This document shows, one piece after another, positions 8,584 through 41,835 of a stretch of 64,000 nt of DNA (its first letter is position 1; the number at the start of each line of letters is the position of its first letter). Source of the DNA: an uncultured Gemmatimonadales bacterium (GTDB taxonomy: Bacteria; Gemmatimonadota; Gemmatimonadetes; Palauibacterales; Palauibacteraceae). The DNA is taken from positions 20,135-84,134 of the forward strand of contig CAMYMV010000001.1 in NCBI GenBank assembly GCA_947259585.1, written 5' to 3'. The notes under the pieces are model-generated. The model had not been told where the DNA came from, did not search any database, and saw only the letters and a list, made by a program, of their open reading frames with translations. The position numbers and the translations under genes are program-made.

Positions 8584-9372
8584 ATGCCAGACCATTTGCT
8601 CGAGATAAGCGACCTCCACGTCACCCTCGAGGGAGAGGGTGCGGAGATCCTCCGCGGCGTGGACCTCACGGTCGGCAGCAGCGAGATCCACGCCCTCATG
8701 GGCCCCAACGGTTCCGGGAAGAGCACTCTCGCCAAGGTCATCGCGGGCCATCCGGCCTACCAGGTGACCCGAGGGGAGATTCTCCTCAACGGCGAGAGCG
8801 TCCTGGAGCTCGAGCCGAACGAGCGCAGCCGGGCCGGGATCTTCATGGCCTTCCAGTATCCGGCCGAAATCCCGGGCGTGACGATCGCCAACTTCCTGCG
8901 CGCGTCGCTCAATGCCCGCCGGGAAGACGATGACGAGATCGACGTCTTTGCCTTCCATCAGCTTCTGCAGGAGAAGATGGCGCTTCTGGAGGTGGATCCG
9001 GACTTCTCCGCACGCTACGTCAACGACGGATTCAGCGGAGGCGAGAAGAAGCGAAACGAGATCCTCCAGATGGCCGTGCTGGAGCCCCAGCTGGCCGTGC
9101 TCGACGAGACGGACAGCGGCCTGGATATCGACGCGCTCAGGATCGTGTCGAACGGCGTCAACACGCTGGCCGAAGCGGATGAAAAGCTCGGCGTGCTCCT
9201 GATCACGCACTACAAGCGGATCCTCCAGTACATCAAGCCCGACCACGTGCACGTTTTGATAAGGGGCCGTGTGGCGGAAAGCGGCGGGGCGGACCTGGCC
9301 GACCACCTCGAGGAGCACGGGTACGACTGGCTGAAGGAAGAGACCGAGGCGGTCCCCGCTGGAGGTGCGTAG
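8584..9372 (+). CDS. sufC: Fe-S cluster assembly ATPase SufC
   Basis: Walker [13 protein letters not shown] signature LSGGEKKR and overall SufC length and layout. Confidence 0.95.
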
Positions 9373-9428
9373 GCCGCCCGATCGCACGTAACCGAGAGAC
9401 CGGATCGCACGTAGCCAAGAGAGAAGAT

Positions 9429-10838: not shown

Positions 10839-10875
10839 GCCGGGCGTTGGCGGCGACTGGCGCGATAGAGAGAGG

Positions 10876-12309: not shown

Positions 12310-12312
12310 CCC

Positions 12313-12621
12313 GTGAGTGATTTCACGACCGTGGCCAATCTGGCGGACGTCCCTGAGAACGGCTTGAAGACGGTGCAGGCGGATGGGGCCAACCTGGTCC
12401 TCGTGAAGCGCGACGGACGAGTCTACGCGCTCGAAGACCGCTGTTCCCACGAGGAGTTCCCGCTATCGGCGGGAGAGGTGACCGGCGACCAGATCACCTG
12501 CGCACTACACGGAGCCCGCTTCGACCTCGCATCGGGTACGCCGAAGGCGCTGCCCGCCGTCCTGCCCGTGCGCACGTTCGAGTGCCGCGTAGAGGGCGAC
12601 GAGGTCCAGGTCAGACTCTGA
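12313..12621 (+). CDS. Rieske (2Fe-2S) ferredoxin-like protein
   Basis: CSHEEFPL...CALHGARF is a Rieske CxH...CxxH pair. It is embedded in the suf operon. Confidence 0.85.
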   Translation: MSDFTTVANLADVPENGLKTVQADGANLVLVKRDGRVYALEDRCSHEEFPLSAGEVTGDQITCALHGARFDLASGTPKALPAVLPVRTFECRVEGDEVQVRL

Positions 12622-12641
12622 TCGCGATCGGCGCCGGCTCC

Positions 12642-13892: not shown

Positions 13893-13919
13893 GCGAACGC
13901 TGCCCCTTACGGCGCACTC

Positions 13920-14444
13920 ATGAGTGAACACGCTGACACCCCGGATGGGAAGCCGATCGACCGGTCTATCCCGAGCGCCCTCGCCGATCTGTTTCAAGAG
14001 GTCATCCTGGACCATTACAGACGTCCCAGGAACAAGGGATCGCTCGAGGAGCCCACGCATACCATCACGATGAACAACCCGCTGTGCGGGGACGTCATCG
14101 AGCTGTCGCTCTCCGTAAAGGCCGACCGGATCGACGACGTGCGCTACGAGGGCAGAGGCTGCTCGATCAGCCAGGCCGCCGTCTCCATGATGACCGAGCG
14201 GCTCAAGGGAGCGAAGCTCGGGGAGGCTCGAGCCCTGTCGGAGAAGTTCACCCGTCTTCTCCACGGCGAGGAAGATCTACAACGGGATGAAAAGCTGGGC
14301 GATCTGCGGGCCCTGGCGGGCGTCTCGAAGTTCCCGGTACGGATCAAGTGCGCCCTGCTGGGCTTCAACTGCCTCGATGAGCTGGTCGGAGAGCCCGCGG
14401 CCGGGGATCGCGAGCCCGGAAGCGGGCAGGGAGAGCAGCGGTAG
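13920..14444 (+). CDS. sufU: SufU/IscU-type Fe-S scaffold (SUF system NifU family)
   Basis: NPLCGDVIEL and GRGCSISQAA contain the conserved Cys residues of SufU. Confidence 0.85.
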   Translation: MSEHADTPDGKPIDRSIPSALADLFQEVILDHYRRPRNKGSLEEPTHTITMNNPLCGDVIELSLSVKADRIDDVRYEGRGCSISQAAVSMMTERLKGAKLGEARALSEKFTRLLHGEEDLQRDEKLGDLRALAGVSKFPVRIKCALLGFNCLDELVGEPAAGDREPGSGQGEQR

Positions 14445-26432: not shown

Positions 26433-26471
26433 GCGAGGCGCCGCGCCGCACGAACGCGGCGGAGGGTGGAC

Positions 26472-27107
26472 CTAGAGCAGCAGCTCGGCGACCTCGGCGG
26501 GCCGGGCGAGCCAGTAGTCAGGCTCCCCCGCCTCGAGGTCGTCCCTTCCGAACGGCCCCCACAGCGCGGCAGCGGTCAACGTTCCGGCCGCGCGGCCGGC
26601 CATCAGATCCCAGATCGCATCGCCGACGAAGAGCGCCCGCCCGGCGTCGCCGACGCTCGCCCGATCAAGCGCCAACGTGACCGGACCCGGATCCGGCTTG
26701 TGCGGAACGGGGTCGTCGGCAGTGACAAAGGCATCGAACCACTCGAGGCTGAGGCCGCAGGACTCCAATCCGCGAAGCGCCATGTCACCCAGCTTGCTGG
26801 TGACGACGCCGAGTCGGTAGCCCGCGGCCCGGAGCCGCCTCAGCGTGTCATCCATGCCTGGAAACGGCCGGAGAGCGTCGTCGTGGGTTCTGGCGTTGTG
26901 CCGGCGGTAGGTCTCCATCATCGACAGGGCCTGATTCTCGTCGCTCGCGAAGCCTCTGAGTTGAATGACCAGCGGCTTGCCCATGTTCACGAGCCAGGCC
27001 TCGTCGGGAGGTACCCAGCCCAGGTGGGCCTCCATCGTATGACGGTAGGAGCCCAGGATGAGCTCGCGCGAATCGATCAGGGTGCCGTCGAGGTCGAACA
27101 GGACCAT
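26472..27107 (-). CDS. HAD-superfamily hydrolase (phosphoglycolate phosphatase-like)
   Basis: MVLFDLDGTLIDS is HAD motif I (DxDGT), with a downstream GDAIWD motif. The start is taken at the internal ATG. Confidence 0.75.
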   Translation of the reverse strand: MVLFDLDGTLIDSRELILGSYRHTMEAHLGWVPPDEAWLVNMGKPLVIQLRGFASDENQALSMMETYRRHNARTHDDALRPFPGMDDTLRRLRAAGYRLGVVTSKLGDMALRGLESCGLSLEWFDAFVTADDPVPHKPDPGPVTLALDRASVGDAGRALFVGDAIWDLMAGRAAGTLTAAALWGPFGRDDLEAGEPDYWLARPAEVAELLL

Positions 27108-27159
27108 CTCCACCGACCCGAATCCCCTCTCGGGCCGCAGATCCTCGCTCACCGCGGCC

Positions 27160-28422
27160 TCAGACCGGCGCCCACGGCTTCGCCACTCTCTCGAATTCTG
27201 CCTTGAAGCTGGCCGCGCTGATTCCGCATACGGCGGCCAGCTCCTCGAGCCGGCGCGGTGATTCGAAGTCCCTGTCACGGAGTCGAATCATGTAGCGTTG
27301 GGCGATCCGGAACCTGGTGGATTCCGTGTCCACCATTCGGACCGCCATCCGGCCCGTCTCGGAATCCAGAAGATCAAGCAGGGGCACCGGCAGGAAGCTG
27401 CCTCCCTGCATGGTGATAAGGACGCCGCTGCCGCCGTCGCTCAGACACCTGGAAGCGCAGAACCCCAGGTCTCTCGTGTACTCCAGATCGTATGGGATCG
27501 GGTCCGCGCAGCGCAGCTCGTAGCCGATGTTCTTGGCCACTATGGTGGGCTGGATGCCGAAGGCCGCCAGTCGCGCTTTCACTCCCTGCTTCAGGATTCC
27601 GCCGACGTCCACTTCCGCCAGCCTCACGTGACCGTGATCATCGCGCTCGACGCCATCCAGCACTGCGAGCTGCCCCTCGGAGAGCCCGAGAATCACCCCC
27701 TCCGCCACGACCGCCACCCCGTCCGATCTTCCATCTGCCAGCCGCTTGATGATCGACCCCGTCAGCGTGTCGACGATCGAATCCAGTTTGGCGCTCCCGT
27801 CGCCGAACTCCTCCGGGGTGAGGGTGATCGTCGCGGCGGCCGCCTTGCCGATCCCGAGGGCCAGGTGGCCGGCCTTGCGCCCCATCGCGACGGCGAAGTA
27901 CCAGCGGGCGGTCGTCTGCGCGTCGGTCATCAGGGTCTTCACCACCCGAACGCCGGCGTGACGTGCGGTCTGGTAGCCGAAGGTGTCGCAGTCCGGCGGA
28001 AGGGCGAGATCGTTGTCGATCGTCTTGGGCACGTGCACCACGCGGATGGACCCTGCCGCCCGCTCCGCCACCCTGGTGGCGGAGTACGCAGTATCGTCGC
28101 CTCCGATCGTGATGAGGCCCGTGATGCCGAGATCCGTCAGTGTTTGAACGACGCGATCCAGTGACGTGGCATCGGTCGTCGGGTTGGCTCGCGAAGTCCG
28201 CAGGCACGATCCGCCGGAGAAGTGGATCCGACTCACGTCCTCGATCGTCAACCGCGCCACGTGTTGATCGTTCCCCCGCATCAGCCACTTGAAGCCGTCG
28301 AAGATGCCCACCACGTCGACGCCGTCCAGCACGCTGCGTATCGTTGCCGCCCCGATCACGCTGTTGATGCCGGGAGCGGGCCCCCCTCCGACGAGTATTC
28401 CGAAACGTTCCTTAGCGTTCAT
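27160..28422 (-). CDS. pfp: 6-phosphofructokinase, predicted pyrophosphate-dependent type (about 420 aa)
   Basis: GGGPAPGINSVI, TIGGDDTAYSA and PKTIDNDL. The Asp in GGDD and Lys in PKTIDND are the residues associated with PPi-dependent PFKs (positions 104/124 in E. coli numbering). Confidence 0.8.
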   Translation of the reverse strand: MNAKERFGILVGGGPAPGINSVIGAATIRSVLDGVDVVGIFDGFKWLMRGNDQHVARLTIEDVSRIHFSGGSCLRTSRANPTTDATSLDRVVQTLTDLGITGLITIGGDDTAYSATRVAERAAGSIRVVHVPKTIDNDLALPPDCDTFGYQTARHAGVRVVKTLMTDAQTTARWYFAVAMGRKAGHLALGIGKAAAATITLTPEEFGDGSAKLDSIVDTLTGSIIKRLADGRSDGVAVVAEGVILGLSEGQLAVLDGVERDDHGHVRLAEVDVGGILKQGVKARLAAFGIQPTIVAKNIGYELRCADPIPYDLEYTRDLGFCASRCLSDGGSGVLITMQGGSFLPVPLLDLLDSETGRMAVRMVDTESTRFRIAQRYMIRLRDRDFESPRRLEELAAVCGISAASFKAEFERVAKPWAPV

Positions 28423-28516
28423 CTTGGGACTCCGAACCGAGTATTCGCGGAGGATGCCTCCGCCGCTCGAGCACTTAGATTAGCACTTTGACCGGATCAC
28501 TTCACGTGAGAGCCGA

Positions 28517-29659
28517 ATGGCCGAAACCAGAACCGAGCCAGAGGGGTCCACCGCCGCGAGCGAAGGGATTCGCCGGCTCGCCATCAACACCGGCGGCGGC
28601 GACGCACCGGGACTCAACGCTGTCATCAGGGCCGCCGTCCTCGCGGCCAGCCGACGCGGCTGGGAGATCGTGGGCATCGAGAACGGATACGCGGGACTCT
28701 TCCCGGACGCCCCGGGCGACATCGTGCCTTTGACGCCCAGCGACGTGCGGGGGATCACACACCTCGGCGGCACGATCCTCGGATCCACCAATCGAGGCAA
28801 TCCGATGGACTGGCCCTGCCAGCTCTCGGATGGGACCATCGAGCGCCGGGATCGGTCGCAGGAGGTCCTGGCCGCATTCGAGCGGCTGGAGCTCGACGCG
28901 CTCATCGCGATCGGCGGGGATGGGAGCCTCCGCATCGCGGCGAGGATGGCTTCCCTCGGGCTGCCGGTCGTGGGCGTGCCGAAAACCATCGACAACGACC
29001 TGGCCGCAACCACGGTTACTTTCGGATTCCATACGGCCGCGGAGACAGCCACGGAGGCGATCGGCCGGCTCCACTCCACCGCCGAGAGCCACGGCCGCGT
29101 GTTCGTCGTCGAAGTGATGGGAGCGACCGCCGGATGGATCGCGCTCTTCAGTGGCGTGGCCGGTACAGCGGACGTCATCCTCATCCCCGAGATCCCCTAC
29201 GACATCGCCAAGGTCTGCGACAAGATCATGGAGCGCGAACGATCGGGGAGGCGCTTCAGCATCGTCTGCGTCGCCGAGGGAGCGAAGCCTCTGGGTGGCG
29301 AAGTGACGATGAAGACGGTGCCGTCCGGATCGGAACGGCAGCCGAGACTCGGCGGCATCGGTGATCAGCTGGCGCAGCAGATCGCGGAGAGGACCGGAAA
29401 GGAGACGCGCGCCCTGGCCCTCGGACACCTGCAGCGTGGTGGACCGCCCACCGCCTACGACCGCCTCATCGCTCTTCGTTTCGGCGCGGCCGCGGTCCGT
29501 TGCGTGGCCGATCGGGAGTTCGGCTGCATGGTGGCCCTGGACCCTCCTCATGTCCTGGCTGTGCCGCTGGACGACGCGGTGCGAGAGGTGAAGACCGTGC
29601 CGATCGACAGCGACATCATCGCCACGGCCCGTGCCCTCGGGACCAGCTTCGGCGACTGA
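28517..29659 (+). CDS. pfkA: 6-phosphofructokinase (PfkA family, GDG/K hybrid signature)
   Basis: INTGGGDAPGLNAVIRA, IGGDGSLRIA and VPKTIDNDL. It is divergently transcribed from the other PFK, with about 95 bp between the starts. Confidence 0.85.
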   Translation: MAETRTEPEGSTAASEGIRRLAINTGGGDAPGLNAVIRAAVLAASRRGWEIVGIENGYAGLFPDAPGDIVPLTPSDVRGITHLGGTILGSTNRGNPMDWPCQLSDGTIERRDRSQEVLAAFERLELDALIAIGGDGSLRIAARMASLGLPVVGVPKTIDNDLAATTVTFGFHTAAETATEAIGRLHSTAESHGRVFVVEVMGATAGWIALFSGVAGTADVILIPEIPYDIAKVCDKIMERERSGRRFSIVCVAEGAKPLGGEVTMKTVPSGSERQPRLGGIGDQLAQQIAERTGKETRALALGHLQRGGPPTAYDRLIALRFGAAAVRCVADREFGCMVALDPPHVLAVPLDDAVREVKTVPIDSDIIATARALGTSFGD

Positions 29660-29698
29660 CCTCCGCTCATCGAGGTTCCACCGAGCCCAGGCGGAAGC

Positions 29699-30682
29699 CT
29701 AAGCCGCGATCTCCTTGAGGGCGCGCCTCACCAACACCGGTACCATCGCCCTGCGCCAATCGGTGTCCACGATGATGTTCTCGAGCGGGTGGCACTGGCG
29801 GAACGCCTGTTCCGCGACCGCGTCGATGACGGATGGAGTGAGAGGATTCCCGACCGCGGCTTCCTCCACCTTCCCGACGCGCCTCGGATAGGAGCCGAGA
29901 GCCGACATCGCCATCCGCAGCTCCGTCACGAGTCCCTCGTCATCCATGCGGGCGGCGACGGCGAGGTTCAGGAGTGGAAAGTCGATGGACGCGCGAGGTC
30001 GGAGCTTCTGGAAGCTCATACGCAGACCGGGCTCCGGCAGGGGGATGTGAACGGCCACCAGGACCTCGTTCGACTCCATCCGCCGGTTCCAGATGCCGTC
30101 CGAGGTGAAGAGGTTCGATACGGGGAGCGTGCGGACCCCGGCAGTTCCCGCGATCTCGACGCTTGCATCCAGGCTCATGAGCACTGGCGGCGTGTCGGCA
30201 GAATGAGCGGCGACACAGCGCGTACCGCCGGGCACGACGTGACAGATCTCGCCGTCCTTTTTCAGGCAGTACCCGAGCGCCTTCCTCCAGAACAGCGTCT
30301 GGTTGTAGTAGGTGCAGCGGGTGTCCAGGCAGATGTTGCCGCCGATCGTTCCCATCCGGCGGAGCTGCGGGCTCGAGACCTCTGAGCAGGCGGTGGCCAG
30401 GGCAGGCACGTGCTCCAGGATGGCCGGGTGTCCCGAGATGGCATGGAGAGACTCGGCCGCTCCGACACGAAGCCGCTGATCCACGACCTCGATCCCCTTC
30501 AACTCGTCGAGGCGGCTCAGGGCGACGAGATGGCCTGGCGTGAAGAGCTTGTGCTTCATGTTGGGCACCAGATCGGTGCCGCCGGCGATCGGAAGGACGT
30601 CGCCGGCATGCCGGTCCAGCAGCTCCAGCGCCGCGTCGAGGTCCGCGGGACGATGATAGATGTAGGGATGAAGTCTGAGCAT
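29699..30682 (-). CDS. xanthine dehydrogenase-family FAD-binding subunit (CoxM-like)
   Basis: MLRLHPYIYHRPADLDAALELLDRHAGDVLPIAGGTDLVPNMK is the FAD_binding_5 N-terminus of molybdopterin dehydrogenases. Confidence 0.8.
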   Translation of the reverse strand: MLRLHPYIYHRPADLDAALELLDRHAGDVLPIAGGTDLVPNMKHKLFTPGHLVALSRLDELKGIEVVDQRLRVGAAESLHAISGHPAILEHVPALATACSEVSSPQLRRMGTIGGNICLDTRCTYYNQTLFWRKALGYCLKKDGEICHVVPGGTRCVAAHSADTPPVLMSLDASVEIAGTAGVRTLPVSNLFTSDGIWNRRMESNEVLVAVHIPLPEPGLRMSFQKLRPRASIDFPLLNLAVAARMDDEGLVTELRMAMSALGSYPRRVGKVEEAAVGNPLTPSVIDAVAEQAFRQCHPLENIIVDTDWRRAMVPVLVRRALKEIAA

Positions 30683-30688
30683 CGCCGC

Positions 30689-31816
30689 TCAAGATACGCT
30701 TTGTGCGGCGTAGGCCTCCAGGGCCTCGCCGATGCAGGCAAGCGCTTCAACGAGCTCTGCCTCTTCTCCTCCGAAGCCGATGCGCAGGAAGCCGTCCAGT
30801 CCGAAGTGGTCTCCCGGGACGACGAGAACGCTCCATTCGCTCCGAAGATGTTCCGCGAGCTCGGAGGAGTTCGCGCCGACGTCGTACGGCACCATGCCGA
30901 TCGCACCGGCCCGTGGCAGGATCCAGGGGCCGAGTGCTTCGCGGCCAGCCAACCACTCGTCGACGATCGCGCGGTTTCGCAACAGGATGTCCCTGGTGCG
31001 GGCGAGGACTCGTCGGCGAGTCTCGGGCCGAAGCACCCTAGCCGCGAGGGCATCGGACGCGGCGGAGGGAGAGATGGTCGTGTAGTCCTTGCGAGCCCAC
31101 AGCTCCTCCATCTCCGCGGTCGGACCGAGGAGCCAGCCAAGCCGGAGCCCTGGGAGCCCGTACGCCTTGGATAGCGATCCCGTCACGAGCGTCCGCTCGT
31201 AGCGGCCCCAGAAGCTGGGGGTCTCGGTGCCCTCCGCCTCGGCGCCCACGTAGACCTCGTCGGCCAGCAGCCAAGCACCGCTGCGCTCGCAGGCACTCAG
31301 GATCTCGTCGACCGCCTCCGCGCTCAGCGTCGAGCCGGTCGGATTCGCGGGGTTGGTGACGACCACCAGCCGCGTGTCCGGCGTGATCGTCGCCTCGGCG
31401 GCTCCGGGATACGGCTGCCAGGAGAGGCTCTCCTCGAGAGCGAAGGTGGCGACCTGTGCCCCAAGCCCCTCTGCCAGGCCCGGCGTCTGCCAATACGTGG
31501 GAACGAGCACGACCGCACGGTCTCCGGGCTCCAGCAGGCGCCAGAGGGTCACGAAGTTGGCTTCGGCGCTCCCGGCGGTGATCAGCACGTTCTCCGGAGC
31601 CGCATCCTCGTACAGCCCGGAGACAGCCTCCCGCAACTCGTTGGAGCCGTTGGTCTGCGGATAGCCCAGAGAGACGTCGGCCGGAGCCAGATCGGTCCAT
31701 TCCAACAGCTCGGCCAGTGAGAACGGCAGCACTCCGCTCTCCGACAGGTTGTAGCGGACGTGATGTTCGTGGTGCGACTGCCAGCGTTCCATGGCGAAGT
31801 TGGGGACTCTCATCAC
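30689..31816 (-). CDS. class I/II PLP-dependent aminotransferase
   Basis: 375 aa with aminotransferase-like organisation (SLSKAYGLPGLRLGW, the PLP-Lys region). Confidence 0.8.
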   Translation of the reverse strand: MMRVPNFAMERWQSHHEHHVRYNLSESGVLPFSLAELLEWTDLAPADVSLGYPQTNGSNELREAVSGLYEDAAPENVLITAGSAEANFVTLWRLLEPGDRAVVLVPTYWQTPGLAEGLGAQVATFALEESLSWQPYPGAAEATITPDTRLVVVTNPANPTGSTLSAEAVDEILSACERSGAWLLADEVYVGAEAEGTETPSFWGRYERTLVTGSLSKAYGLPGLRLGWLLGPTAEMEELWARKDYTTISPSAASDALAARVLRPETRRRVLARTRDILLRNRAIVDEWLAGREALGPWILPRAGAIGMVPYDVGANSSELAEHLRSEWSVLVVPGDHFGLDGFLRIGFGGEEAELVEALACIGEALEAYAAQSVS

Positions 31817-32055
31817 CGCTGCCTCTGTGCTCGATTCATCCTGACGGGCCCTGTCGCCGGCGAGCGCGCCCCGGCATCATGACCTGTCTTCCGGAAGGGT
31901 TCGCCGACGGCGGGCCGTTTCCGGCGGTTCATCACTCCCGAAGGGTAATCGCACCCTGCACGAGAGCACCACCCGCCCACTCTCGCGTCGCGAATTCGCC
32001 AAGCGTGCCGGGACGGAGGCGCCGATCACGTGGAGGAGAGAACGAGGATGGAACG

Positions 32056-32589
32056 ATGAGGAATCGTAAACCGAGAGACCCACTACCGGCCCGTCTGCTG
32101 TCGCTGACCTGCCTGCTCGCGATCGCATGCGGGCCGGGTGAGACGGCTGCTACACAGGAAGCGGGCGAGAGCCAGGGCGAAACAGCAGGCGTCCGGAGCG
32201 CGGAGTCGGATGCCGATCAGATCTTCGCCGCGGACGAGGCGTTCAACCGGGTGACGGGAGAGCTGGGCGCTGCCGGATGGGTCGACTTCTTCGCACCCGA
32301 CGGGCGGATGGTCGTGAACGGCGAGGAGATCACCGGCAAAGCCGCCGTCCAGGAGGCGATGGAGCCCTATCTGTCGGCTGTCCGACTAGAATGGAGCCCG
32401 ACCCGAGCCGCCGCGCGAGCCGGCTCAGATCTGGGCTACACGGTGGGACGCTTTCGCGCGACGCCCAGGGAGAATCCTGACTCGGTGATCGCCACCGGCA
32501 CCTATGTGACTATCTGGGAGCGCCAGGCGGACGGCAGCTGGAAGGTCGCGCTCGATATCGGGAGTCCCCACCCGGAGCCACGGCCCTAG
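32056..32589 (+). CDS. lipoprotein with SnoaL-like/DUF4440-like domain
   Basis: The start MRNRKPRDPLPARLLSLTCLLAIACG has a lipobox, and a GGAGAG RBS precedes it. The C-terminal ...VTIWERQADGSWKVALDIGS is typical of DUF4440/NTF2-like folds. Confidence 0.6.
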   Translation: MRNRKPRDPLPARLLSLTCLLAIACGPGETAATQEAGESQGETAGVRSAESDADQIFAADEAFNRVTGELGAAGWVDFFAPDGRMVVNGEEITGKAAVQEAMEPYLSAVRLEWSPTRAAARAGSDLGYTVGRFRATPRENPDSVIATGTYVTIWERQADGSWKVALDIGSPHPEPRP

Positions 32590-32619
32590 CGCCGGCTTGG
32601 AGCGAGCGCGGGAGTGCGG

Positions 32620-32973
32620 CTACAGGATCTCCATCTTGTCCGGGCCGTTCGGCACGACACAAAGGAACTCGAACGGCTCGTCACCCAGGGCCTCATACCA
32701 GTGCGGGATGCCCGCCGGGATGAAAAGAACGTCGTCCTTCGACACCTCGACAACCTCGTCCCCGAGCCCGATCCGTGCCCTGCCACGAAGCACGTACTGC
32801 TCGTGCTCCACCGTATTGGTGTGGGGCGGCATCCCTCCGCCGGGGGCCATGCGGAAGCGCCGCAGCGCGAAGTTGGGAGCCTCGTCCGGTCCGATCAGGA
32901 TCTGTCGCGAGGTGTGCGCGCCCGCCGGGACATCTTCGGCAGGCACGGCGTCGGCACGTCTGACTCTATCCAC
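32620..32973 (-). CDS. cupin-domain protein
   Basis: G(X)5HxH...E-like cupin motifs (MPPHTNTVEHEQYVLRGRARIGLGDEVVEVSKDDVLFIPAGIPH). Confidence 0.7.
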   Translation of the reverse strand: MDRVRRADAVPAEDVPAGAHTSRQILIGPDEAPNFALRRFRMAPGGGMPPHTNTVEHEQYVLRGRARIGLGDEVVEVSKDDVLFIPAGIPHWYEALGDEPFEFLCVVPNGPDKMEIL

Positions 32974-32993
32974 CCACCTTCTCCTTTGATCGG

Positions 32994-33347
32994 CTAGTCG
33001 GCGGAATCGACGAGCTCGAGGAGCTTCTCGGGCGGACGGCCCAACACGGCGCGATCCCCGAGGACTCCAATGGGACGCTGGAGAAGCGTCGGATGCTCGG
33101 CCAGCAGCTCGATGAGCCGCTCCTCCGACTCCTCGCCCGTCATTCCGAGCTGCCGGAAGGCTCGATCCCTGCGGCGCAGGACCTCTTCGGGCGTCACCCC
33201 CAGACGTCGCACCGTGCTCCGGATCTCCGCCTCCGAGAGGGGCTCCTTCTTGTAGTCGCGGTATCTGAAGGCGATGCCGCGCTTCTCGAGCAAGGCGACC
33301 GCCTTGCGGCAGGTGCCTCAGGTGCGTGTACAGATAAGCTCGATCAT
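32994..33347 (-). CDS. ArsC/Spx-family thiol-disulfide oxidoreductase-like SELENOPROTEIN (in-frame TGA at 33318-33320 read as Sec)
   Basis: The track ORF (TTG start, 99 aa) lacks the N-terminal redox motif. Extending upstream in frame reaches an ATG at 33347 with a GAGG SD, only 10 nt after the pckA stop. The conceptual product is MIELICTRT-U-GTCRKAVALLEKRGIAFRYRDYKKEPLS..., where the TGA sits exactly where Spx/ArsC proteins carry the first Cys of the CxxC motif (Spx C-T-S-C-RKA). The rest aligns with Spx/ArsC, including the EHPTLLQRPI region. Confidence 0.6.
33294..33317 (-). promoter_or_regulatory. candidate bSECIS-like hairpin immediately 3' of the UGA
   Basis: The mRNA after UGA reads GGC ACC UGCCGC AAG GCGGUC GCC. 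A GCCGC/GCGGU stem with an AAG loop is extended by GGC/GCC outer pairs. The spacing is consistent with bacterial SECIS placement, but no covariance model was run. Confidence 0.3.
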
Positions 33348-33357
33348 TCGGCCTCGC

Positions 33358-34950
33358 TCAGCCCGCCACGGCAGGCGCTCCGGGTCCGGCCTCGCGGACC
33401 TCGGGCTCGCAGTGATCGGCGTACTTCTCGAAGTTCTCGCGAAACAGGCCGGCCAGCCTTTGTGCCGTCGCGTCGTAGGCCTCTTTGTCCGCCCAGGTGT
33501 CGCGCGGCTTGAGGATCTCGGACGGGACGCGAGACACCTCCGTGATCATCTGAACGCCGAAGACCGGATCCGGCTCGGTGGGAGCGCTCTCCAGCTCGCC
33601 GCTGTGGATGGCGTCGATGATGGCCCGCGTGTAGGGCAGATTGATCCGCGAGCCGACCCCGTAGGCCCCGCCGCTCCACCCGGTGTTCACCAGCCAGACG
33701 TCGGTCCCGTGCTCCCGCATCTTCCTGGCCAGCATCTCGGCGTAAACGGCCGGATGCCAGACGAGGAACGGGGCGCCGAAGCAGGCGGAGAAGGTCGTCT
33801 CGGGGTCGGTGACGCCGACCTCGGTTCCCGCCACCTTCGCCGTATACCCGCTGATGAAGTGGTACATCGCCTGCGCTTCGGTCAGCTTGCTCACCGGAGG
33901 CAGCACGCCGAAGGCATCGCAGGTGAGGAAGATCACGTCGGTCGGATGGCCCGCAACGCAGGGGATCTTGGCGTTCGCAATGAACGTGATCGGGTAAGCC
34001 CCTCGCGTGTTCTGAGTGATCGTGTCATCCGAGTAATCGACTTTTCGGCGCTCGTCCAGGACGACGTTCTCCAGCACGGCACCGAAGCGGAGCGCCTGGA
34101 AGATGTCGGGCTCCCACTCCATGCTCAGGTCGATCGTCTTCGCGTAGCAACCACCTTCGATGTTGAAGATGCCCTCGTTCGTCCAGCAGTGCTCGTCGTC
34201 CCCGATCAGGAAACGCTTGGGATCGGCGGATAGTGTGGTCTTCCCGGTGCCCGAGAGACCGAAGAGAAGCGAAGAGCGATCGGTCTCCTGATCCGCCGTT
34301 GCCGAGCAGTGCATGGAGAGGACGCCCTGCTTCGGCATCAGGTAGTTCATGATCGTGAAGACGCCCTTCTTCATCTCCCCGGCGTACTCCGTGCCCAGGA
34401 TCACGACCTCGCGGTCCTCGAAGCTCAGATCGACCGTGGTGGGCGAGAGGCCGGTGGTCTCGTGGGCGGCCGGAAACTGGCCGGCGTTGTAGATCACGTA
34501 GTCCGGATCGCCGAAGCTCTCGAGCTCCTCCGTGGTCGGCCTGATGAGCATGTCGTACATGAAGAGGGCATGGTACGGGCGCGAGCAGATGATTCTGACC
34601 TTGATCTGGTACTTCGGGTCCCAGCCGGCGAAGCCGTCGATGCAGAAGATCGGGTCGCAGAGATTGAGGAGGTCTCGCGCCCGCTCCCTGTTGAGCTTGA
34701 ACAGCTCGGGCTCGATCGGAAAGTTGACGGGCCCCCACCAGACCTCGCCCTCCGAATCGACGTGCTTGACCAGATGCTTGTCCATCGGAGAACGGCCGGT
34801 CTTCTTCCCGGAATAAGCCACGAGGGCGCCGTTGGCCGCGATGGCCGAATCCTCCTCGCGCCTGATCGCTGACTCGTACAACGCCGCCGGAGGCGGATTG
34901 TGGCGCACGTCCTCGACGGTGATGCCATGCTGGCTGAGATCGAAGCTCAT
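33358..34950 (-). CDS. pckA: phosphoenolpyruvate carboxykinase (ATP)
   Basis: PckA sequence with a P-loop-like GLSGTGKTTLS and characteristic C-terminal domains. The start is taken at the MSFDLSQHGI ATG at 34950. Confidence 0.9.
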   Translation of the reverse strand: MSFDLSQHGITVEDVRHNPPPAALYESAIRREEDSAIAANGALVAYSGKKTGRSPMDKHLVKHVDSEGEVWWGPVNFPIEPELFKLNRERARDLLNLCDPIFCIDGFAGWDPKYQIKVRIICSRPYHALFMYDMLIRPTTEELESFGDPDYVIYNAGQFPAAHETTGLSPTTVDLSFEDREVVILGTEYAGEMKKGVFTIMNYLMPKQGVLSMHCSATADQETDRSSLLFGLSGTGKTTLSADPKRFLIGDDEHCWTNEGIFNIEGGCYAKTIDLSMEWEPDIFQALRFGAVLENVVLDERRKVDYSDDTITQNTRGAYPITFIANAKIPCVAGHPTDVIFLTCDAFGVLPPVSKLTEAQAMYHFISGYTAKVAGTEVGVTDPETTFSACFGAPFLVWHPAVYAEMLARKMREHGTDVWLVNTGWSGGAYGVGSRINLPYTRAIIDAIHSGELESAPTEPDPVFGVQMITEVSRVPSEILKPRDTWADKEAYDATAQRLAGLFRENFEKYADHCEPEVREAGPGAPAVAG

Positions 34951-35081
34951 GTCGGTCCTGCCCTCTGAAGTCGCGCTGGCCGGGAGTCGGGTCCGTCGTG
35001 TGGAGAGCGAACGCGCCGCCCTCGACGGGCGGCGCCCTGCCAAGCTATTGAGTACGGAGCGGGCTCACCACCGGTGGCAGC

Positions 35082-35543
35082 CTATGCCACCGGGTCGGTA
35101 GGGGGCTTGGAGCGGCCACTCCTCACCCCGGCTCCGATCAGTACGCCGATGGCGCCGAGCAGCGGGTTCAGCAGCGCCACCCAGGCGGGTTGCTGGGCGT
35201 TTTGCATCGCGACGGTGTTGCTGACATCCCCCTCGCGTGGCGCCGACGGCGAGGTGGTGGTGAGAACCGGGACGGCGAAGGCGAATCCGAGGAGAAGAAC
35301 CAGGACCGCCAGCAGCTTGGGCGCTCTCTCATCGCGGGCGATCGCCTCGCACACGTACCCGCCGAGAATCGCCCCCGCCAGCCCGAGCATGAAGCTCGTC
35401 ACGATCCACAGGTTGGTGACGTCGAAGACGCCGGGCTGAAAGGCCCTGTCCGCGCCCATGACCCGGTAGGCGATCGAGAAGGAGAGGAAGACGAAGGCCA
35501 CCATCATCAGGTAGCCGAGGATCACGCCTCCGAAGGTCTTCAT
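35082..35543 (-). CDS. hypothetical integral membrane protein
   Basis: MKTFGGVILGYLMMVAFVFLSFSIAYRV..., with about 4 predicted hydrophobic helices. The start is taken at the internal ATG. Confidence 0.5.
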   Translation of the reverse strand: MKTFGGVILGYLMMVAFVFLSFSIAYRVMGADRAFQPGVFDVTNLWIVTSFMLGLAGAILGGYVCEAIARDERAPKLLAVLVLLLGFAFAVPVLTTTSPSAPREGDVSNTVAMQNAQQPAWVALLNPLLGAIGVLIGAGVRSGRSKPPTDPVA

Positions 35544-35689
35544 CGTTTCGCTCCGTCTCCTTGTTCGCGCATCGCCGCCTCGAAAGCCGCCCCTCTCCCA
35601 ACTCCAGAAATACCGGACTCCCCCGGCTCGGGCCAGCCGTAAGGCAGTTCTGCCGGGCGGGCGAGCCTCTCCGCAGCCGGGAGCCCGGG

Positions 35690-36079
35690 TCAGGCACCTT
35701 CCGGCTCGGCAGCGGCCGGCTGCCAAAGCTCGATCTTCGTCCCCGCGGGATCGATGAACCAGCCGAAGCGACCGTAGTCGTACTCCTCGATCTCGCCCAC
35801 TACCTTCGCGCCTCCCTCCTCCACCTGCCTCAACGCACCATCGAGATCGTCAACAACGAGGTTGACCATGAACGGCTTGCCGGAGGGATCGAAGTAGGCC
35901 GTCGAATCGTCGAACGGCCCCCAGACGCAGAACGCGGTCTCCGGAAGATGGCTCACGTCGAAACCGACGCTGCCGTAATCGTCGAACTCGAAGCCCAGGT
36001 GCTCCCCGTACCAGGCCTCCAGCTCTTTCTTGTCGGCGCACTTGAAGAAGACGCCTCCGATCCCGATCGCTTTGGCCAC
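35690..36079 (-). CDS. VOC (glyoxalase/bleomycin-resistance) family protein
   Basis: 129 aa with a GGVFFKCAD...GWFIDPAGTKIEL pattern typical of VOC-fold proteins. Confidence 0.75.
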   Translation of the reverse strand: MAKAIGIGGVFFKCADKKELEAWYGEHLGFEFDDYGSVGFDVSHLPETAFCVWGPFDDSTAYFDPSGKPFMVNLVVDDLDGALRQVEEGGAKVVGEIEEYDYGRFGWFIDPAGTKIELWQPAAAEPEGA

Positions 36080-36250
36080 GTTTCCCTCCCGAGGTCCGGG
36101 TTGTTCTCACGACCGAGTCAATCTCTGAACCGGATGCCGGGTCCGGCAACCGGCGGCGGCGAGTGAGCATCCCGGGCAACCCTGCCTTTGCCTCCGGCAT
36201 CTCACTGTCGGGCCGGGCGGTGTTCTCCTCACCCTCTCATGGCTGGCGAC

Positions 36251-37252
36251 ATGATCAGGTGCGCGCGGTGTCTCGTTCTGCTGACTCATTGCCTCCTGGC
36301 CCTTCCCCGACTCATCCAGGCCCAGGAGCTGGCGCACGCTGACCGGATTCGAATCGCGGAGGCGTTTCGCCTCGCCGACGCGGTCGAGCAGCTGTGGCCC
36401 GGTTGGTCGGAGGTGCCGTTCGCCGTTCTGCTCGTGACTTCCGAGCATGAATTCCTCATCCGGCACCCACACCCTACCGACGATTTCGAGTCGTTGGGTC
36501 GCGACGCGATCCTCGACGAAGAGGTCCTCGCTCGGCCGCGAGTCTTCGAGCCGGACCTACGGGCAACCTTCCCGGCGGTGGCGGGTGTGCCGACCCTCGT
36601 GATCGGCACCTCCGAGGCCACCGGGCTCTCGTCCACACAATGGGTCCTAACGGCGCTCCACGAGCACTTCCATCAACTCCAGATGTCGGACGCCGAGTAC
36701 CATCCGGCGACCAGCGATCTCGACCTGAGCGGCGGGGACGAGAGCGGGATGTGGATGCTCGACTACCCGTTTCCGTACGATTCCCCGGACGTGGCGGCGG
36801 CCCTCGAGAAGCTCGGTCGAACCGGCAGGCGAGCTCTTGACTCGATCGGGTCGCGCTCATCCAGGCAGGTCCTGGCCGACTACCTGGCCCTACGCGACAG
36901 GCTGCCGGACCTCCTCGCCGAAAAGGATTACCGATACCTTTCGTTCCAGATCTGGCAGGAAGGGCTCGCCCGTTACACTCAACTCGCAGTAGCAGCCAAG
37001 GCCGCGGCCGGCTACGAGCCGCTGCGAGAATTCGAGGCGCTGCAGGACTACATCCCCTACTCCCAGGCCGCCGCGGAGCTGCGTGAGACGGTACGGAGCG
37101 AGCTGGAGAACGAGCTGCCCGAGCTCAGACGGGTGTTCTTCTACCCGCTGGGCGCGGTCGAGGGACTCTTGCTGGATGAGTTCAGGCCCGGCTGGCGAGA
37201 GCTGTATCTGGCCCGGAAGTTCTACGTCGAGCGTTACTTCGCGGACCGGTAG
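36251..37252 (+). CDS. secreted hypothetical protein with HExxH motif (possible zinc metallopeptidase)
   Basis: Signal peptide MIRCARCLVLLTHCLLALPRLIQAQE and an ALHEHFHQLQ (HExxH) motif. No family was recognised. Confidence 0.5.
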   Translation: MIRCARCLVLLTHCLLALPRLIQAQELAHADRIRIAEAFRLADAVEQLWPGWSEVPFAVLLVTSEHEFLIRHPHPTDDFESLGRDAILDEEVLARPRVFEPDLRATFPAVAGVPTLVIGTSEATGLSSTQWVLTALHEHFHQLQMSDAEYHPATSDLDLSGGDESGMWMLDYPFPYDSPDVAAALEKLGRTGRRALDSIGSRSSRQVLADYLALRDRLPDLLAEKDYRYLSFQIWQEGLARYTQLAVAAKAAAGYEPLREFEALQDYIPYSQAAAELRETVRSELENELPELRRVFFYPLGAVEGLLLDEFRPGWRELYLARKFYVERYFADR

Positions 37253-38843: not shown

Positions 38844-41261
38844 CTAGGCCACCTCTGCCGCGCTCTTCGCCGCCTCGGCTTCCCGGATGGCGCGCCACAC
38901 CCGATCGGGCGTGAAGGGTAGGCTGTCGATCCGGATCCCGATCGCGTCGTAGATGGCGTTGGCGATGGCGGGCAGTGATGGATGGAGCGGCCCCTCGCCG
39001 GCTTCCTTCGCCCCGTAGGGCCCCTCCGGGTCGATCGATTCCACGATGAGCGGCACGAACTCCGGACAGTCGAGCGAGGTGGGGATCCGGTAGTCCAGGA
39101 GGGAGGGGGCGTCGTGGAGCGCGCCCTGGTGCTCACCGGTCTTGTACGTCTGCTCCTCGAGAATCGCCTCGGCACAGCCCATATACGCGGAGCCCTCGAT
39201 CTGTCCCTCCACCAGCATCGGGTTGAGGGCGCGACCGCAATCGTGCGCCACCCAGATCGTCTTGACCTCGACGAATCCGCTCTCGGGATCCACCTCGACC
39301 TCGGCCACGTGGGCGGTGAAGCTGTAGGCGGGCGAGGCGCCGATCGTCCCGCCCCGATACTCGCCGTGCACCCCCTCCTTCGGCGTGTTGTAGTGGCCGA
39401 CGGCTCCCAGCGTGCCGTACCCGGCCTCCGCGAGCTGGAAGGCCTGCGCGATCGGCATGCGGCGTTCGGGGCTGGCGGGATCTGCGCTGTCGAACGCCCA
39501 GCCACCGGCCAACCGAACCTGGGACGACTCGATCCCCCATTCACTCGCGACGCTGCCCCGCACCTGCTCGCCGATTTGCCGACAGGCCATCACGCAGGCG
39601 TTCCCCACCATCACGGTCTCGCGAGAGGAGTACGCTCCGAGGTCCACCGGAACGAGATCGGTATCGGCCGAGAAGACCCGCACGTAGTCGAGGGGAACGC
39701 CGAGCTCTTCGCAGGCGATGTATGCCATCGTCGAGTCGGAGCCCTGGCCGATCTCCGAAGCTCCATGGAGAACGGTCACTCGGCCCGAGCGCTCCACCTG
39801 GACCTGAACCGCCGCCTGGGGCATGGGGTTGGGATAGATCGGATAGTTGGTGCCGGAGATGTAGCAGGATCCCGCCACGCCGATTCCCCTGCCGTAGCCC
39901 ATCTTCCGGAACTTGTCCTTCCACCCGCTCTCCGATTCAACCGACTCGAGGCACTCCAGGAAGCCGTTCGACCGTACCCGGAACTCGTTAACCGTGCGGC
40001 CGGTCCCCATGAAGACGCCACGCCTGAACTCGATCGGGTCCAGGTCCAGCTCCTCGGCCACCTTGTCGAGCGAGATCTCGAAGGCGAAGCGCGGCTGCAC
40101 GGAGCCATGCCCGCGCTTGGGCCCGCACGGGGCCTTGTTGGTGTAGACCCGCGTGGAATCGAAGCGGTAGGAGTCGATCTCGTACGGCGCGGTCAGGAGC
40201 TGCCCGCTGTAGTAGGTCGTGACGAGCCCGAACGAGGCGTACGCGCCCCCATCCAGGATCGTCTTCGCATCCACGGCGAGGATCCGGCCATCTCTGGATG
40301 CCCCAACCCGGTACGTCATCTTCATCGGATGCCGGCCGCGGTGGGAGTAGAAGACCTCCTCCCGCGTGTAGAGGATCTTCACCGGCCGGCCAGTGCGCAC
40401 GGCGAGAAGCGCCACGCAGAACTCGAGATCGAAGGGCTCGGACTTCCCGCCGAACGCTCCACCCACCGCGGGCTGAACGACGCGCACCTTGGCGACGTCC
40501 AGGCCGAGCACGCGGGCGATCTCGCGGTGCAGGTAGTGCGGCACCTGCGTCGCCGACCACACCTCCAGCAGGCCGTTCTGGTTCATTCGCGAGATCGCGC
40601 AGTGGGGCTCGATCGGCGTGTGGGTCGTCCCGTGGAAGAAGTACTCGCCCTGCACGAGGACATCGGCCTTCGCCATCTTCTCGTCGACCGGCCCGAACTC
40701 GAGCTGCACGCGCTTGAGGACGTTGCCGTTGTGGCCTGGCTTGCGAGGCTCGTGGATCGGGTTCTCGGCGGCTTCCTCCGCGAGCGCTTCCTGCGGATCC
40801 AGGTAGTAGGGAAGCGGCTCGTACACGACCTCGATCAGCTCCAGGGCCGCGGTCGCCGTCTCCTCGTCGATCGCCGCCACGCAGGCGACCGCATCGCCGA
40901 CGAAGCGCACCTTCTCCAGGGCGAGGGCGTGCTCATCCGGCGTCCATGGGATGATGCCGTAGGGAGTCGGCAGCTCCTTCCCGGTGATGACGTCGTAGAC
41001 GCCCGGGAGCGCGAGCGCCTTCGTCGGGTCGATCGAGAGGATCCTCGCGTGCGGCTCCGTGCTTCTCAGGATCTTTGCGTGGAGCATGCCGGGGAAGGTG
41101 ATGTCGTCGGTGTAGACGGCCTTTCCCGTCGACTTGAACAAGCCGTCTGTGCTCCGGTTCCGGCCGCCGATCGTCCGGTACTCGGCCTCCGCCACTTCCC
41201 GAAGCCGTTCCGGCTCGTCCGCCGTGACCTCCTGCAGCGGGAGAAGGTCTTCGTTACGCAT
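38844..41261 (-). CDS. xanthine dehydrogenase-family molybdopterin-binding large subunit (CoxL/aldehyde oxidase-like)
   Basis: 805 aa from the MRNEDLLPLQEV start. Ald_Xan_dh_C and molybdopterin-binding regions are recognisable (GGAFGGK, YDVITGKELP). The start overlaps the coxS-like 3' end by 8 bp. Confidence 0.85.
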   Translation of the reverse strand: MRNEDLLPLQEVTADEPERLREVAEAEYRTIGGRNRSTDGLFKSTGKAVYTDDITFPGMLHAKILRSTEPHARILSIDPTKALALPGVYDVITGKELPTPYGIIPWTPDEHALALEKVRFVGDAVACVAAIDEETATAALELIEVVYEPLPYYLDPQEALAEEAAENPIHEPRKPGHNGNVLKRVQLEFGPVDEKMAKADVLVQGEYFFHGTTHTPIEPHCAISRMNQNGLLEVWSATQVPHYLHREIARVLGLDVAKVRVVQPAVGGAFGGKSEPFDLEFCVALLAVRTGRPVKILYTREEVFYSHRGRHPMKMTYRVGASRDGRILAVDAKTILDGGAYASFGLVTTYYSGQLLTAPYEIDSYRFDSTRVYTNKAPCGPKRGHGSVQPRFAFEISLDKVAEELDLDPIEFRRGVFMGTGRTVNEFRVRSNGFLECLESVESESGWKDKFRKMGYGRGIGVAGSCYISGTNYPIYPNPMPQAAVQVQVERSGRVTVLHGASEIGQGSDSTMAYIACEELGVPLDYVRVFSADTDLVPVDLGAYSSRETVMVGNACVMACRQIGEQVRGSVASEWGIESSQVRLAGGWAFDSADPASPERRMPIAQAFQLAEAGYGTLGAVGHYNTPKEGVHGEYRGGTIGASPAYSFTAHVAEVEVDPESGFVEVKTIWVAHDCGRALNPMLVEGQIEGSAYMGCAEAILEEQTYKTGEHQGALHDAPSLLDYRIPTSLDCPEFVPLIVESIDPEGPYGAKEAGEGPLHPSLPAIANAIYDAIGIRIDSLPFTPDRVWRAIREAEAAKSAAEVA

Positions 41262-41835
41262 GTGAGGCGCCCGTGGAGGATCCGGCCGTGTGTTCGGCGG
41301 GTCGCATGGAGCTGGACGGGAAGGCGAGATCGTAGCGCTCGGCGACGATGTCCCGCGGGTCCGTCCCGGTACGAAGGCTCTCGGCTGCGATCTCGACCGC
41401 CTCGAAGATCTTCGTGTATCCGGTGCAGCGGCACAGGTTGCCGGAGAGGGCCTGCCGGATCTCATCCCGGCTCGGATCGGGGTTCTCGGCCAGCAAGCCG
41501 TAGGCGCTGCACAGGATGCCGGGCGTGCAGAAGCCGCACTGAGCCGCGCCGCAGAGGTCGAAGGCATCCTGGAGGGGGTGGGGGACTCGTCTCTCAGCCA
41601 GCCCTTCCACCGTCGTGATCTGGCGCCCGATCGCCTCGTAAACCGGCATGATGCAGGCGAGATGCGGCCTGCCGTCGAGCAGAACGGTGCAGGCGCCGCA
41701 GTCGCCCTTGTCACAGCCCTGCTTCGAGCCGGTCAAGCCGAGGGCATAGCGGAGCGTCTCGAGCAGGGTGAAGTGGGTGGGGACTCCCACTTCGACCTCG
41801 TCGCCGTTGATGTGAAGCGTGATGACGTCCTTCAT
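41254..41835 (-). CDS. xanthine dehydrogenase-family (2Fe-2S)-binding small subunit (CoxS-like)
   Basis: MKDVITLHINGDEVEV...CDKGDCGACTVLLDG...CGFCTPG...CRCTGY contains the two [2Fe-2S] cysteine clusters. GGAG RBS. The long upstream part of the track ORF is a GC artefact. Confidence 0.85.
   Translation of the reverse strand: MKDVITLHINGDEVEVGVPTHFTLLETLRYALGLTGSKQGCDKGDCGACTVLLDGRPHLACIMPVYEAIGRQITTVEGLAERRVPHPLQDAFDLCGAAQCGFCTPGILCSAYGLLAENPDPSRDEIRQALSGNLCRCTGYTKIFEAVEIAAESLRTGTDPRDIVAERYDLAFPSSSMRPAEHTAGSSTGASHA

Follow-up and report, generated by a model that had tools for sequence, protein, structure and literature searches.

A TGA-interrupted, mis-called gene in an uncultured Gemmatimonadales bacterium is predicted to encode an ArsC-like selenoprotein

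Introduction

Members of the ArsC superfamily in which selenocysteine (Sec) replaces Cys have been catalogued since 2005–2008. An "Arsenate reductase, UxxS" selenoprotein was described in the Sargasso Sea (PMC1088965), an "ArsC-like" selenoprotein in deltaproteobacterial genomes (PMC1794560), and both an "Arsenate reductase 1 (UxxS)" and an "Arsenate reductase 2 (UxxC)" in the Global Ocean Sampling (GOS) selenoproteome (Zhang & Gladyshev 2008, PMC2398784). A 2026 review lists TIGR00014 with UxxS and NF041106 with UxxC, the latter under the name "Arsenate reductase-like protein, UxxC" (PMC13188914). Here we describe a gene of this superfamily that lies, interrupted by an in-frame TGA codon, between pckA and a cupin gene on contig CAMYMV010000001.1 (assembly GCA_947259585.1) of an uncultured Gemmatimonadales bacterium. 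The 64,000-nucleotide stretch of that contig that we analyzed is referred to throughout as the window.

Several better characterized systems provide points of reference for this locus. Spx, whose N-terminal redox motif resembles that of the protein described here, is a redox-sensing, RNA-polymerase-binding regulator of the Firmicutes. The selenocysteine insertion sequence (SECIS) of E. coli fdhF is a hairpin that lies within the coding sequence 3′ of the UGA, carries a GGUC loop, and is separated from the UGA by ~10–11 nt. A more general model of the bacterial SECIS element comprises a loop of 3–9 nt, an upper stem of 4–16 bp, a G within the first two loop positions, a UGA-to-loop distance of 16–37 nt and a minimum free energy of −7.5 kcal/mol or lower (PMC13188914 Fig. 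2). With respect to catalysis, the triad formed by Arg60, Arg94 and Arg107 has been described as essential to ArsC, whereas YffB lacks it (PMC3169414).

Results

An in-frame TGA interrupts a gene between pckA and a cupin gene

On the minus strand of the window, the stop codon of pckA (TGA, 33360–33358) is followed by a 10-nt spacer, GCGAGGCCGA, which includes the sequence GAGG, and then by an ATG. From this ATG nine sense codons (ATG ATC GAG CTT ATC TGT ACA CGC ACC, encoding MIELICTRT) lead directly into an in-frame TGA. Beyond the TGA the frame continues as GGC ACC TGC CGC AAG GCG GTC GCC TTG CTC (the peptide beginning GTCRKAVALLEKRGIAF...) and remains intact as far as a TAG at 32996–32994, such that conceptual translation through the TGA gives 117 sense codons including Sec10 (Table 1). 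The gene upstream matches PEPCK_ATP with a score of 701 bits, and the gene downstream matches Cupin_2. An initial annotation of this DNA had placed a selenoprotein gene between pckA and a cupin gene at these positions, and had noted that a caller of open reading frames (ORFs) returns only a 99-amino-acid, TTG-initiated fragment (32994–33293) devoid of the N-terminal redox motif. All of its coordinates were reproduced, our ORF listing likewise contained only that fragment at this locus, and on its own the fragment aligns with the Pfam ArsC profile from position 14 of the profile onward only.

The analyses described below indicate that positions 32994–33347 are a genuine but mis-called gene, the predicted product of which is ArsC-like with Sec in place of the catalytic Cys. 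In particular, we assign a probability of roughly 0.92 to the proposal that the region encodes a 117-residue oxidoreductase of the ArsC fold in which Sec serves as the active-site nucleophile.

Table 1. Positions of features of the predicted ArsC-like selenoprotein gene in the window.
Feature	Position	Strand	Basis
Full coding sequence, predicted ArsC-like selenoprotein	32994..33347	-	Translation; Pfam ArsC 59.4 bits; alignment to full-length Cys-form homologs
ATG start	33345..33347	-	10 nt 3′ of pckA stop; start-type codon conserved across Sec forms
GAGG Shine-Dalgarno-like motif, 4 nt 5′ of ATG	33352..33355	-	Read from the sequence
In-frame TGA, predicted Sec10	33318..33320	-	Counterpart of R773 ArsC Cys12 and Spx Cys10; TGA in 74/84 family sequences
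Predicted bacterial SECIS core, within R14–L20 codons	33290..33307	-	Fold energy; covariation; synonymous-site freezing
TTG (Leu19) in 3′ arm of SECIS stem; false start of 99-amino-acid fragment	33291..33293	-	Sequence; ORF listing
Cys13 codon TGC, +3 partner in U-G-T-C, presumed resolving thiol	33309..33311	-	Invariant 84/84
Cys6 codon TGT, four residues before Sec	33330..33332	-	Invariant 84/84
Arg58 codon (Arg60 of R773 ArsC)	33174..33176	-	Alignment; invariant 84/84
Arg91 codon (Arg94 of R773 ArsC)	33075..33077	-	Alignment; invariant 84/84
Arg104 codon (Arg107 of R773 ArsC)	33036..33038	-	Alignment; invariant 84/84

The TGA occupies the catalytic Cys column throughout the family

A protein search identified 478 homologs at E ≤ 1e-5, and among the best 120 of these the lengths were bimodal, with one group of ~94–107 amino acids (75–85% query coverage) and another of ~109–130 amino acids (94–98% coverage). 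The long homologs read ..[IL]ELIC[TK][RK]TC[GS]TCRKAVALL.. and have a Cys exactly at the column of the TGA. One of the truncated database proteins, P0058, is encoded on a 3.99-Mb contig, and its locus displays the same arrangement of ATG, nine codons and TGA. When GTDB species were scanned, each represented by one genome, 79 loci were recovered; the column could be read in 77 of them, and contained TGA in 72 and TGC in five. When all family sequences available as DNA were considered (the window, the 72 loci and one read-through contig on the side of TGA), the column read TGA in 74 of 84 sequences (hereafter Sec forms) and TGC or TGT in the remaining 10 (Cys forms). The hosts of the scanned loci are labeled as Gemmatimonadota, including Longimicrobiales; Acidobacteriota (Thermoanaerobaculia and Vicinamibacteria); Polyangiaceae and Nannocystaceae; and Calditrichaceae, among others. 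Complete genomes with the TGA form include OZ252109.1, OZ243123.1 and CP011806.1, and Acidobacteria bacterium Mor1 is a cultivable organism that carries the gene. The initial annotation's claim that the TGA falls precisely on the first Cys of a CxxC motif is therefore borne out by the Cys-containing homologs, which carry Cys there (as CxTC), and the comparison of TGA with TGY at this column favors TGA in related and distant taxa alike.

One contig of this set ('Candidatus Multivoradales', L030) contains two copies of the gene, at 10028 and 16616 and thus 6.6 kb apart, that are identical over their first 40 residues, a pattern that a gene duplication or a repeat in the assembly might explain.

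An ordinary Cys-containing ArsC-like gene could in principle have been inactivated by a nonsense mutation. A single transition or transversion turns TGC or TGT into TGA, Cys forms do exist, and the machinery for Sec insertion was not found in the window. However, chance falls far short of explaining the same TGA at this column in 72 other species-level genomes. These genomes span several phyla and the frame is otherwise intact, and it is not credible that one codon acquired the same nonsense mutation independently in each; moreover, the nine codons upstream of the TGA appear to be under purifying selection, and a SECIS-like hairpin with covariation follows it (see below). A pseudogene is thus highly improbable, and is effectively refuted at the level of the family. 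The initial annotation had likewise argued that a pseudogene TGA would not be expected to land on the catalytic Cys with the frame preserved.

With respect to the upstream codons, the codon nine positions 5′ of the TGA is a start-type codon in 71 of 73 Sec forms (ATG in 55, GTG in 13 and TTG in three). At codons −6, −5, −4 and −1 the variation among Sec forms is entirely synonymous (Leu as CTG, CTC or TTG; Ile as ATC or ATT; Cys as TGC or TGT; and Thr as ACC, ACG or ACT). This pattern points to purifying selection at the protein level on the nine codons that precede the TGA.

Two database proteins (P0045 and P0101) have Trp at the Sec column, as might be seen if a standard amino acid (Trp, Gly or Cys) were inserted at the TGA, either because the codon has been reassigned or by near-cognate read-through. 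The DNA that specifies a protein with Trp at this column (L083, a TARA scaffold, positions 61–402) nevertheless reads ACC TGA GGC, and the Trp in both entries is a gene-caller artefact in which TGA has been translated as Trp. In addition, TGA ends 26 of the 43 well-supported, coding-like ORFs in the window, including pckA immediately upstream; TGA is therefore the commonest stop codon here, and codon reassignment is not the explanation. Since the hairpin 3′ of the TGA also has the spacing and the GGUC loop of a SECIS that binds SelB, decoding as a standard amino acid can be given almost no credence.

A hairpin with the properties of a bacterial SECIS element follows the TGA

The 18 nt at 33307–33290 can form the hairpin GCAAGGC-GGUC-GCCUUGC, in which a perfect 7-bp stem, beginning 10 nt 3′ of the UGA, presents a GGUC apical loop 17 nt from the UGA. 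This core has a predicted free energy of −11.1 kcal/mol (z = −4.2), a stability reached by 0 of 200 shuffled sequences. Longer folds around the TGA were unremarkable (z = −1.65 for 61 nt and z = −0.59 for 121 nt), and the significance is limited to the 18-nt core, where it is backed by the comparative data given below. A loop of 4 nt that starts with GG, a stem of 7 bp, a UGA-to-loop distance of 17 nt and an energy of −11.1 kcal/mol all lie within the ranges of the bacterial SECIS model. Thus, a canonical bacterial hairpin is found just 3′ of the TGA, in the region that the initial annotation had proposed to search for such an element. Like the SECIS of fdhF, it is embedded in the coding sequence just downstream of the UGA, has a GGUC loop and is separated from the UGA by ~10–11 nt; unlike that element, this putative SelB-binding hairpin contains no bulged U in its stem, which is a short, perfect 7-bp helix. 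A scan of the window against Rfam at gathering thresholds gave no match, and a scan of 33150–33450 at E ≤ 10 returned only a chance match to IMPDH-RNA on the opposite strand.

The codons that form the hairpin are nearly frozen. Among 73 Sec forms, codons +4 to +9 read CGC in 72, AAG in 66, GCG in 73, GTC in 73, GCC in 72 and TTG in 68, while the majority base at the third positions of flanking codons reaches ~50%; TTG is a rare Leu codon in these genomes, which have a G+C content of ~67%. Where the stem does change, it changes on both sides. In five genomes AAGG/CCUU is replaced by AGGG/CCCU (A-U to G-C), and in locus L059 of the counted alignment it is replaced by AAAG/CUUU (G-C to A-U), a change seen a second time in L083, the compensated hairpin of which reads GCAAAGC-GGUC-GCUUUGC. 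Across an alignment of 71 sequences, 99.8% of cells were paired and three pairs showed double changes, values that were reached in none of 500 shuffles; control hairpins slid along the same alignment were 29–57% paired.

The Cys forms provide a further control. Of the 73 Sec forms, 72 retain the exact hairpin, versus two of 10 Cys forms (Fisher p = 1e-8). In the other eight Cys forms the stem is broken (TTG to CTG, uncompensated), the first G of the loop is changed (GCG to GCC or GCA), or both, and yet these genes still encode the same RKAVAL peptide; the constraint on the RNA is therefore specific to the TGA forms. A nearly invariant 18-nt SECIS element, together with Cys forms in which it has or has not decayed, provides a clean natural experiment in which one stretch of sequence is constrained both as protein and as RNA.

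The two Cys forms with a complete hairpin and GGUC loop are L071 (at ~10028) and L082 (at ~1028), which carry TGC and TGT, respectively; in these, the hairpin looks like a "fossil" SECIS left by a recent conversion of Sec to Cys.

These observations also bear on whether the true product might be the 99-amino-acid protein initiated at the TTG at 33293, with the conserved stretch upstream serving as a leader or in regulation. Products of 94–100 amino acids are indeed what ORF callers and public databases give. Such a product, however, would be a fragment lacking strand β1 and the catalytic residue. The Cys-form homologs are full-length proteins that align collinearly through the upstream codons, the variation of which is synonymous, and the presumed start codon specifies Leu19 inside the stem and is replaced in five Sec forms by CTG, which is not a start codon. 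We regard a 99-amino-acid product as scarcely conceivable, and favor translation of the full 117 codons from the ATG through the TGA.

The predicted protein resembles ArsC proper more closely than Spx

For profile searches the TGA was translated as Cys. The resulting read-through product scores 59.4 bits with Pfam ArsC (PF03960; cut-off 24) over residues 9–111, and also matches Glutaredoxin, weakly. The best match among NCBIfam models is TIGR00014 (glutaredoxin-type arsenate reductase arsC; 87.1 bits). Models for Spx and YffB come after it, including TIGR01617 (Spx/MgsR), which gives 64.4 bits and does not reach its cut-off of 75.05, and NF041106 gives 17.2 bits and falls short of its cut-off of 85. 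In PDB the sequence matches are, in order, the arsenate reductases 3F0I and 3RDW, Spx, R773 ArsC and YffB; matches at E = 1e-13 fix the fold, and a GRPPE motif is common to the predicted protein, 3F0I and 3RDW.

Alignment to R773 ArsC (the reference sequence used is 100% identical to PDB 1I9D) places U10 at the catalytic Cys12 and R58, R91 and R104 at Arg60, Arg94 and Arg107, respectively. Residues C6, T9, U/C10, C13, R58, H85, P86, R91 and R104 are invariant in all 84 conceptual translations, and R14 is present in 83. The residue that aligns with Cys6 is His in R773 ArsC and Thr in Spx, and the one that aligns with Arg104 is Tyr in Spx. We conclude, from these alignments, that the protein is probably an enzyme like ArsC proper that differs from it in three respects: a Sec nucleophile, a Cys at +3 (as in Spx) in place of Ser, and an additional invariant Cys, Cys6. 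The initial annotation had assigned the protein to an Spx/ArsC family; membership in the ArsC superfamily holds, whereas the likeness to Spx is less close than had been implied, with TIGR00014 the best model and the Arg triad present.

The relationships to the individual families can be made more precise. R773/E. coli ArsC (1I9D, TIGR00014) and the UxxS selenoproteins share with the protein described here the fold, the best-scoring family and the equivalents of the catalytic Cys12 and the Arg triad. Unlike these proteins, which have C/U-G-T-S, it has U-x-T-C as well as the extra invariant Cys6, and it lacks the ~24-residue C-terminal extension of R773 ArsC; no ars operon context was found for its gene. 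Spx/MgsR proteins (1Z3E, TIGR01617) have C-x-x-C-RKA at the same N-terminal position, and residues 1–104 align with Spx of the B. subtilis type at E = 5e-12 to 7e-12. Spx nonetheless has VGY where the predicted protein has LGR (that is, Tyr for Arg104), its chains are 131–132 amino acids rather than 117 and end in a C-terminal tail that is absent here, and the clade described here is found in Gemmatimonadota, Acidobacteriota and Myxococcota. The "ArsC family (seleno)protein" NF041106 (ArsC_rel_Se_1) is likewise a UxxC protein of the ArsC superfamily with Sec at the same structural position, but its reads lack the RPI and GRP arginine motifs and the predicted protein scores far under its cut-off.

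Members of the clade have in fact been detected before. A peptide search of supplement file 3 of the GOS study (PMC2398784) showed that two of the reads grouped there as "Arsenate reductase 2 (UxxC)" belong to this clade. One of these, JCVI_READ_1093018614276 (MLTLICKRTUTTCRKAVALL...HPTLLQRPIGVLGDQAVLGRP), is 59% identical to the predicted protein over 113 residues (E = 2e-48); the other is JCVI_READ_2161197 (MQLICTKTUSACRKAVALL...). A GOS read of the clade scores 80.3 bits against TIGR00014. The reads share the architecture M-x-x-LIC-x-x-T-U-x-x-C-RKAVALL ... HPTLLQRPIG ... GRP with the predicted protein, in keeping with the initial suggestion that an ArsC-like family is among the known prokaryotic selenoproteins. 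The "Arsenate reductase 2" group is, however, heterogeneous: most of its reads (WYYMRGGUTTC...) belong to the NF041106 subfamily, which looks unrelated and a typical member of which scores 116 bits with that model, and reads of this type align with the predicted protein over only 38 residues at 29% identity. The clade was not singled out in 2008, and its hosts (Gemmatimonadota, Acidobacteriota and Myxococcota) were not identified there. Thus, sequences of the clade were already picked up in 2008 but were pooled with those of a different subfamily, and the gene in the window is an unannotated member of it and not a new family. A literature search for Sec use in Gemmatimonadota or Acidobacteriota found nothing specific.

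Sec machinery and genomic context

Several observations weigh against the assignment of the gene as a selenoprotein gene of the ArsC type. First, no selA, selB, selD or tRNA-Sec was found in the 64-kb window when 42 further ORFs were searched with Pfam and the DNA was searched with ARAGORN, Rfam and, by tblastn, E. coli SelA and SelD. Second, no ars gene (such as arsR or arsB/acr3), and no other conserved neighbor, was found at 78 loci. Third, the TIGR00014 score lies below the trusted cut-off of that model, 106.05. Fourth, the hairpin overlaps the strongly conserved residues RKAVAL, such that part of its conservation reflects constraint on the protein. With regard to the last of these, an additional constraint on the RNA is suggested by the freezing of synonymous sites and by the comparison with Cys forms.

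The search for Sec machinery was extended to the loci of the other genomes. ARAGORN found no tRNA-Sec in 60 loci, and tblastn with the same SelA and SelD queries gave no match in the window plus 1.34 Mb of loci. These are weak negatives, given how small a part of a genome was sampled. The source genome is predicted to be competent for Sec insertion.

(ARAGORN reported no tRNA genes at all in L001–L060, which is below expectation for ~0.95 Mb and may reflect chance or the behavior of the tool with multiple sources.)

The lack of sel genes within 64 kb would fit a lineage in which a true Sec-family gene has outlived Sec decoding, the TGA now causing termination and the locus being a very recent relic or the source of a 9-residue peptide; indeed, bacteria have often lost the Sec trait (PMC1794560). 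Comparison with a close relative speaks against such a loss. Window positions 24711–36435 are collinear with the closest relative, L002 (JBDHIM010000024.1, from the Gemmatimonadota metagenome-assembled genome BHB10-2_Bin_296), over 11.7 kb at 88–92% nucleotide identity, which assigns the source organism to the Gemmatimonadota, and in both the TGA, the hairpin, the start and the downstream frame are intact. Within the gene 30 codons differ, 17 synonymously (including the stop, TAG to TAA) and 13 non-synonymously; two of the differing codons lie 5′ of the TGA, both synonymous, and there are no differences in codons 10–21. This pattern of change indicates continuing selection on a translated, recoded gene, and we consider it very unlikely that the lineage has lost the ability to decode the TGA as Sec.

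With regard to the surroundings of the gene, no neighboring family is common to more than six of the 78 loci. The order pckA–gene–cupin forms an operon-like row in this lineage only, and elsewhere the gene stands alone. Given that ars genes are missing from the vicinity of the 78 loci, arsenate as the substrate is without support from context. A scan for promoters and terminators around the gene returned nothing meaningful.

Proposed mechanism

The gene runs from the ATG at 33347 through the TGA at 33320–33318 to the TAG at 32996–32994. If it is translated as proposed, the GGUC hairpin would act as a bacterial SECIS element that recruits SelB-GTP-Sec-tRNA(Sec), such that the UGA is decoded as Sec and termination is avoided. 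Recoding is evident at the level of sequence and covariation, and the steps by which it would take place are modeled on the established bacterial Sec pathway.

In the resulting enzyme, Sec10 would attack an oxyanion bound by the Arg triad (R58, R91 and R104), with arsenate the best guess as to its identity. The positions of Sec10 and the triad correspond to those of R773 ArsC, and the chemistry is that which this correspondence of residues would predict. Cys13 of the U-x-T-C motif could then resolve the adduct, or the oxidized selenol, as a selenenylsulfide; the invariant Cys6 may take part as a possible relay; and a thioredoxin- or glutaredoxin-type system would presumably re-reduce the enzyme.

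A more far-reaching idea, which we put forward tentatively and think rather unlikely, is that the LIC-x-x-T-U-x-T-C clade is a functionally distinct enzyme and not just ArsC with Sec. Such an enzyme would combine the Arg triad of glutaredoxin-type ArsC with an Spx-like U-x-x-C center and Cys6, would operate through an intramolecular selenenylsulfide/disulfide relay coupled to thioredoxin, would possibly act on another oxyanion, and would be encoded throughout Gemmatimonadota, Acidobacteriota and Myxococcota by a housekeeping gene that stands alone. Were this so, few selenoproteins in these phyla of soils and sediments would be more widespread, and current annotation models miss it.

Consequences for annotation

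No NCBIfam model reaches its cut-off for the clade to which the predicted protein belongs, and because no such model captures the clade the databases hold mostly truncated products. Among the top 120 database clusters, approximately two thirds consist of fragments of 94–107 amino acids without the active site, and two others have Trp at the Sec position; a 97-amino-acid NCBI entry, for example, is named "arsenate reductase (glutaredoxin)". With a model built for this clade, a complete redox enzyme would be recovered from many genomes of Gemmatimonadota, Acidobacteriota and Myxococcota; such a model would also mark the genomes that carry it as Sec users. The occurrence of Sec in place of Cys in the ArsC superfamily will not surprise a specialist, and the practical value of the present findings lies in this annotation gap.

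Other features of the window

Other pairs of same-frame ORFs that are split by a TGA in the window were considered and found to be ordinary adjacent genes and not selenoproteins. The pairs inspected were sufS/sufU, an aminotransferase and an FAD subunit, DAO and peptidase S15, and an ORF without hits followed by DinB_2. The first of these pairs belongs to a complete suf Fe-S operon at 8578–14441 (plus strand), which contains a sufC-like ABC ATPase gene, two SufB/D-core genes, a sufS-like class-V aminotransferase gene and a sufU-like NifU_N gene; the in-frame TGA that separates the last two of these genes is an ordinary stop.

ARAGORN called a tRNA-Ser(GGA) at 26718–26799 (minus strand), inside the HAD_2 hydrolase ORF at 26475–27287 (domain residues 62–240). 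This call was unmatched in the Rfam gathering scan and is probably a false positive. Two genes of the phosphofructokinase family, at 27163–28479 (minus strand) and 28484–29656 (plus strand), are arranged divergently and back to back, with one match much weaker than the other (160 versus 337 bits). Finally, genes for FAD- and molybdopterin-binding subunits of a molybdenum hydroxylase of the xanthine/CO dehydrogenase type lie 8 kb apart, at 29702–30688 and 38847–41732 (both on the minus strand); some hydroxylases of this type use a labile selenium cofactor.

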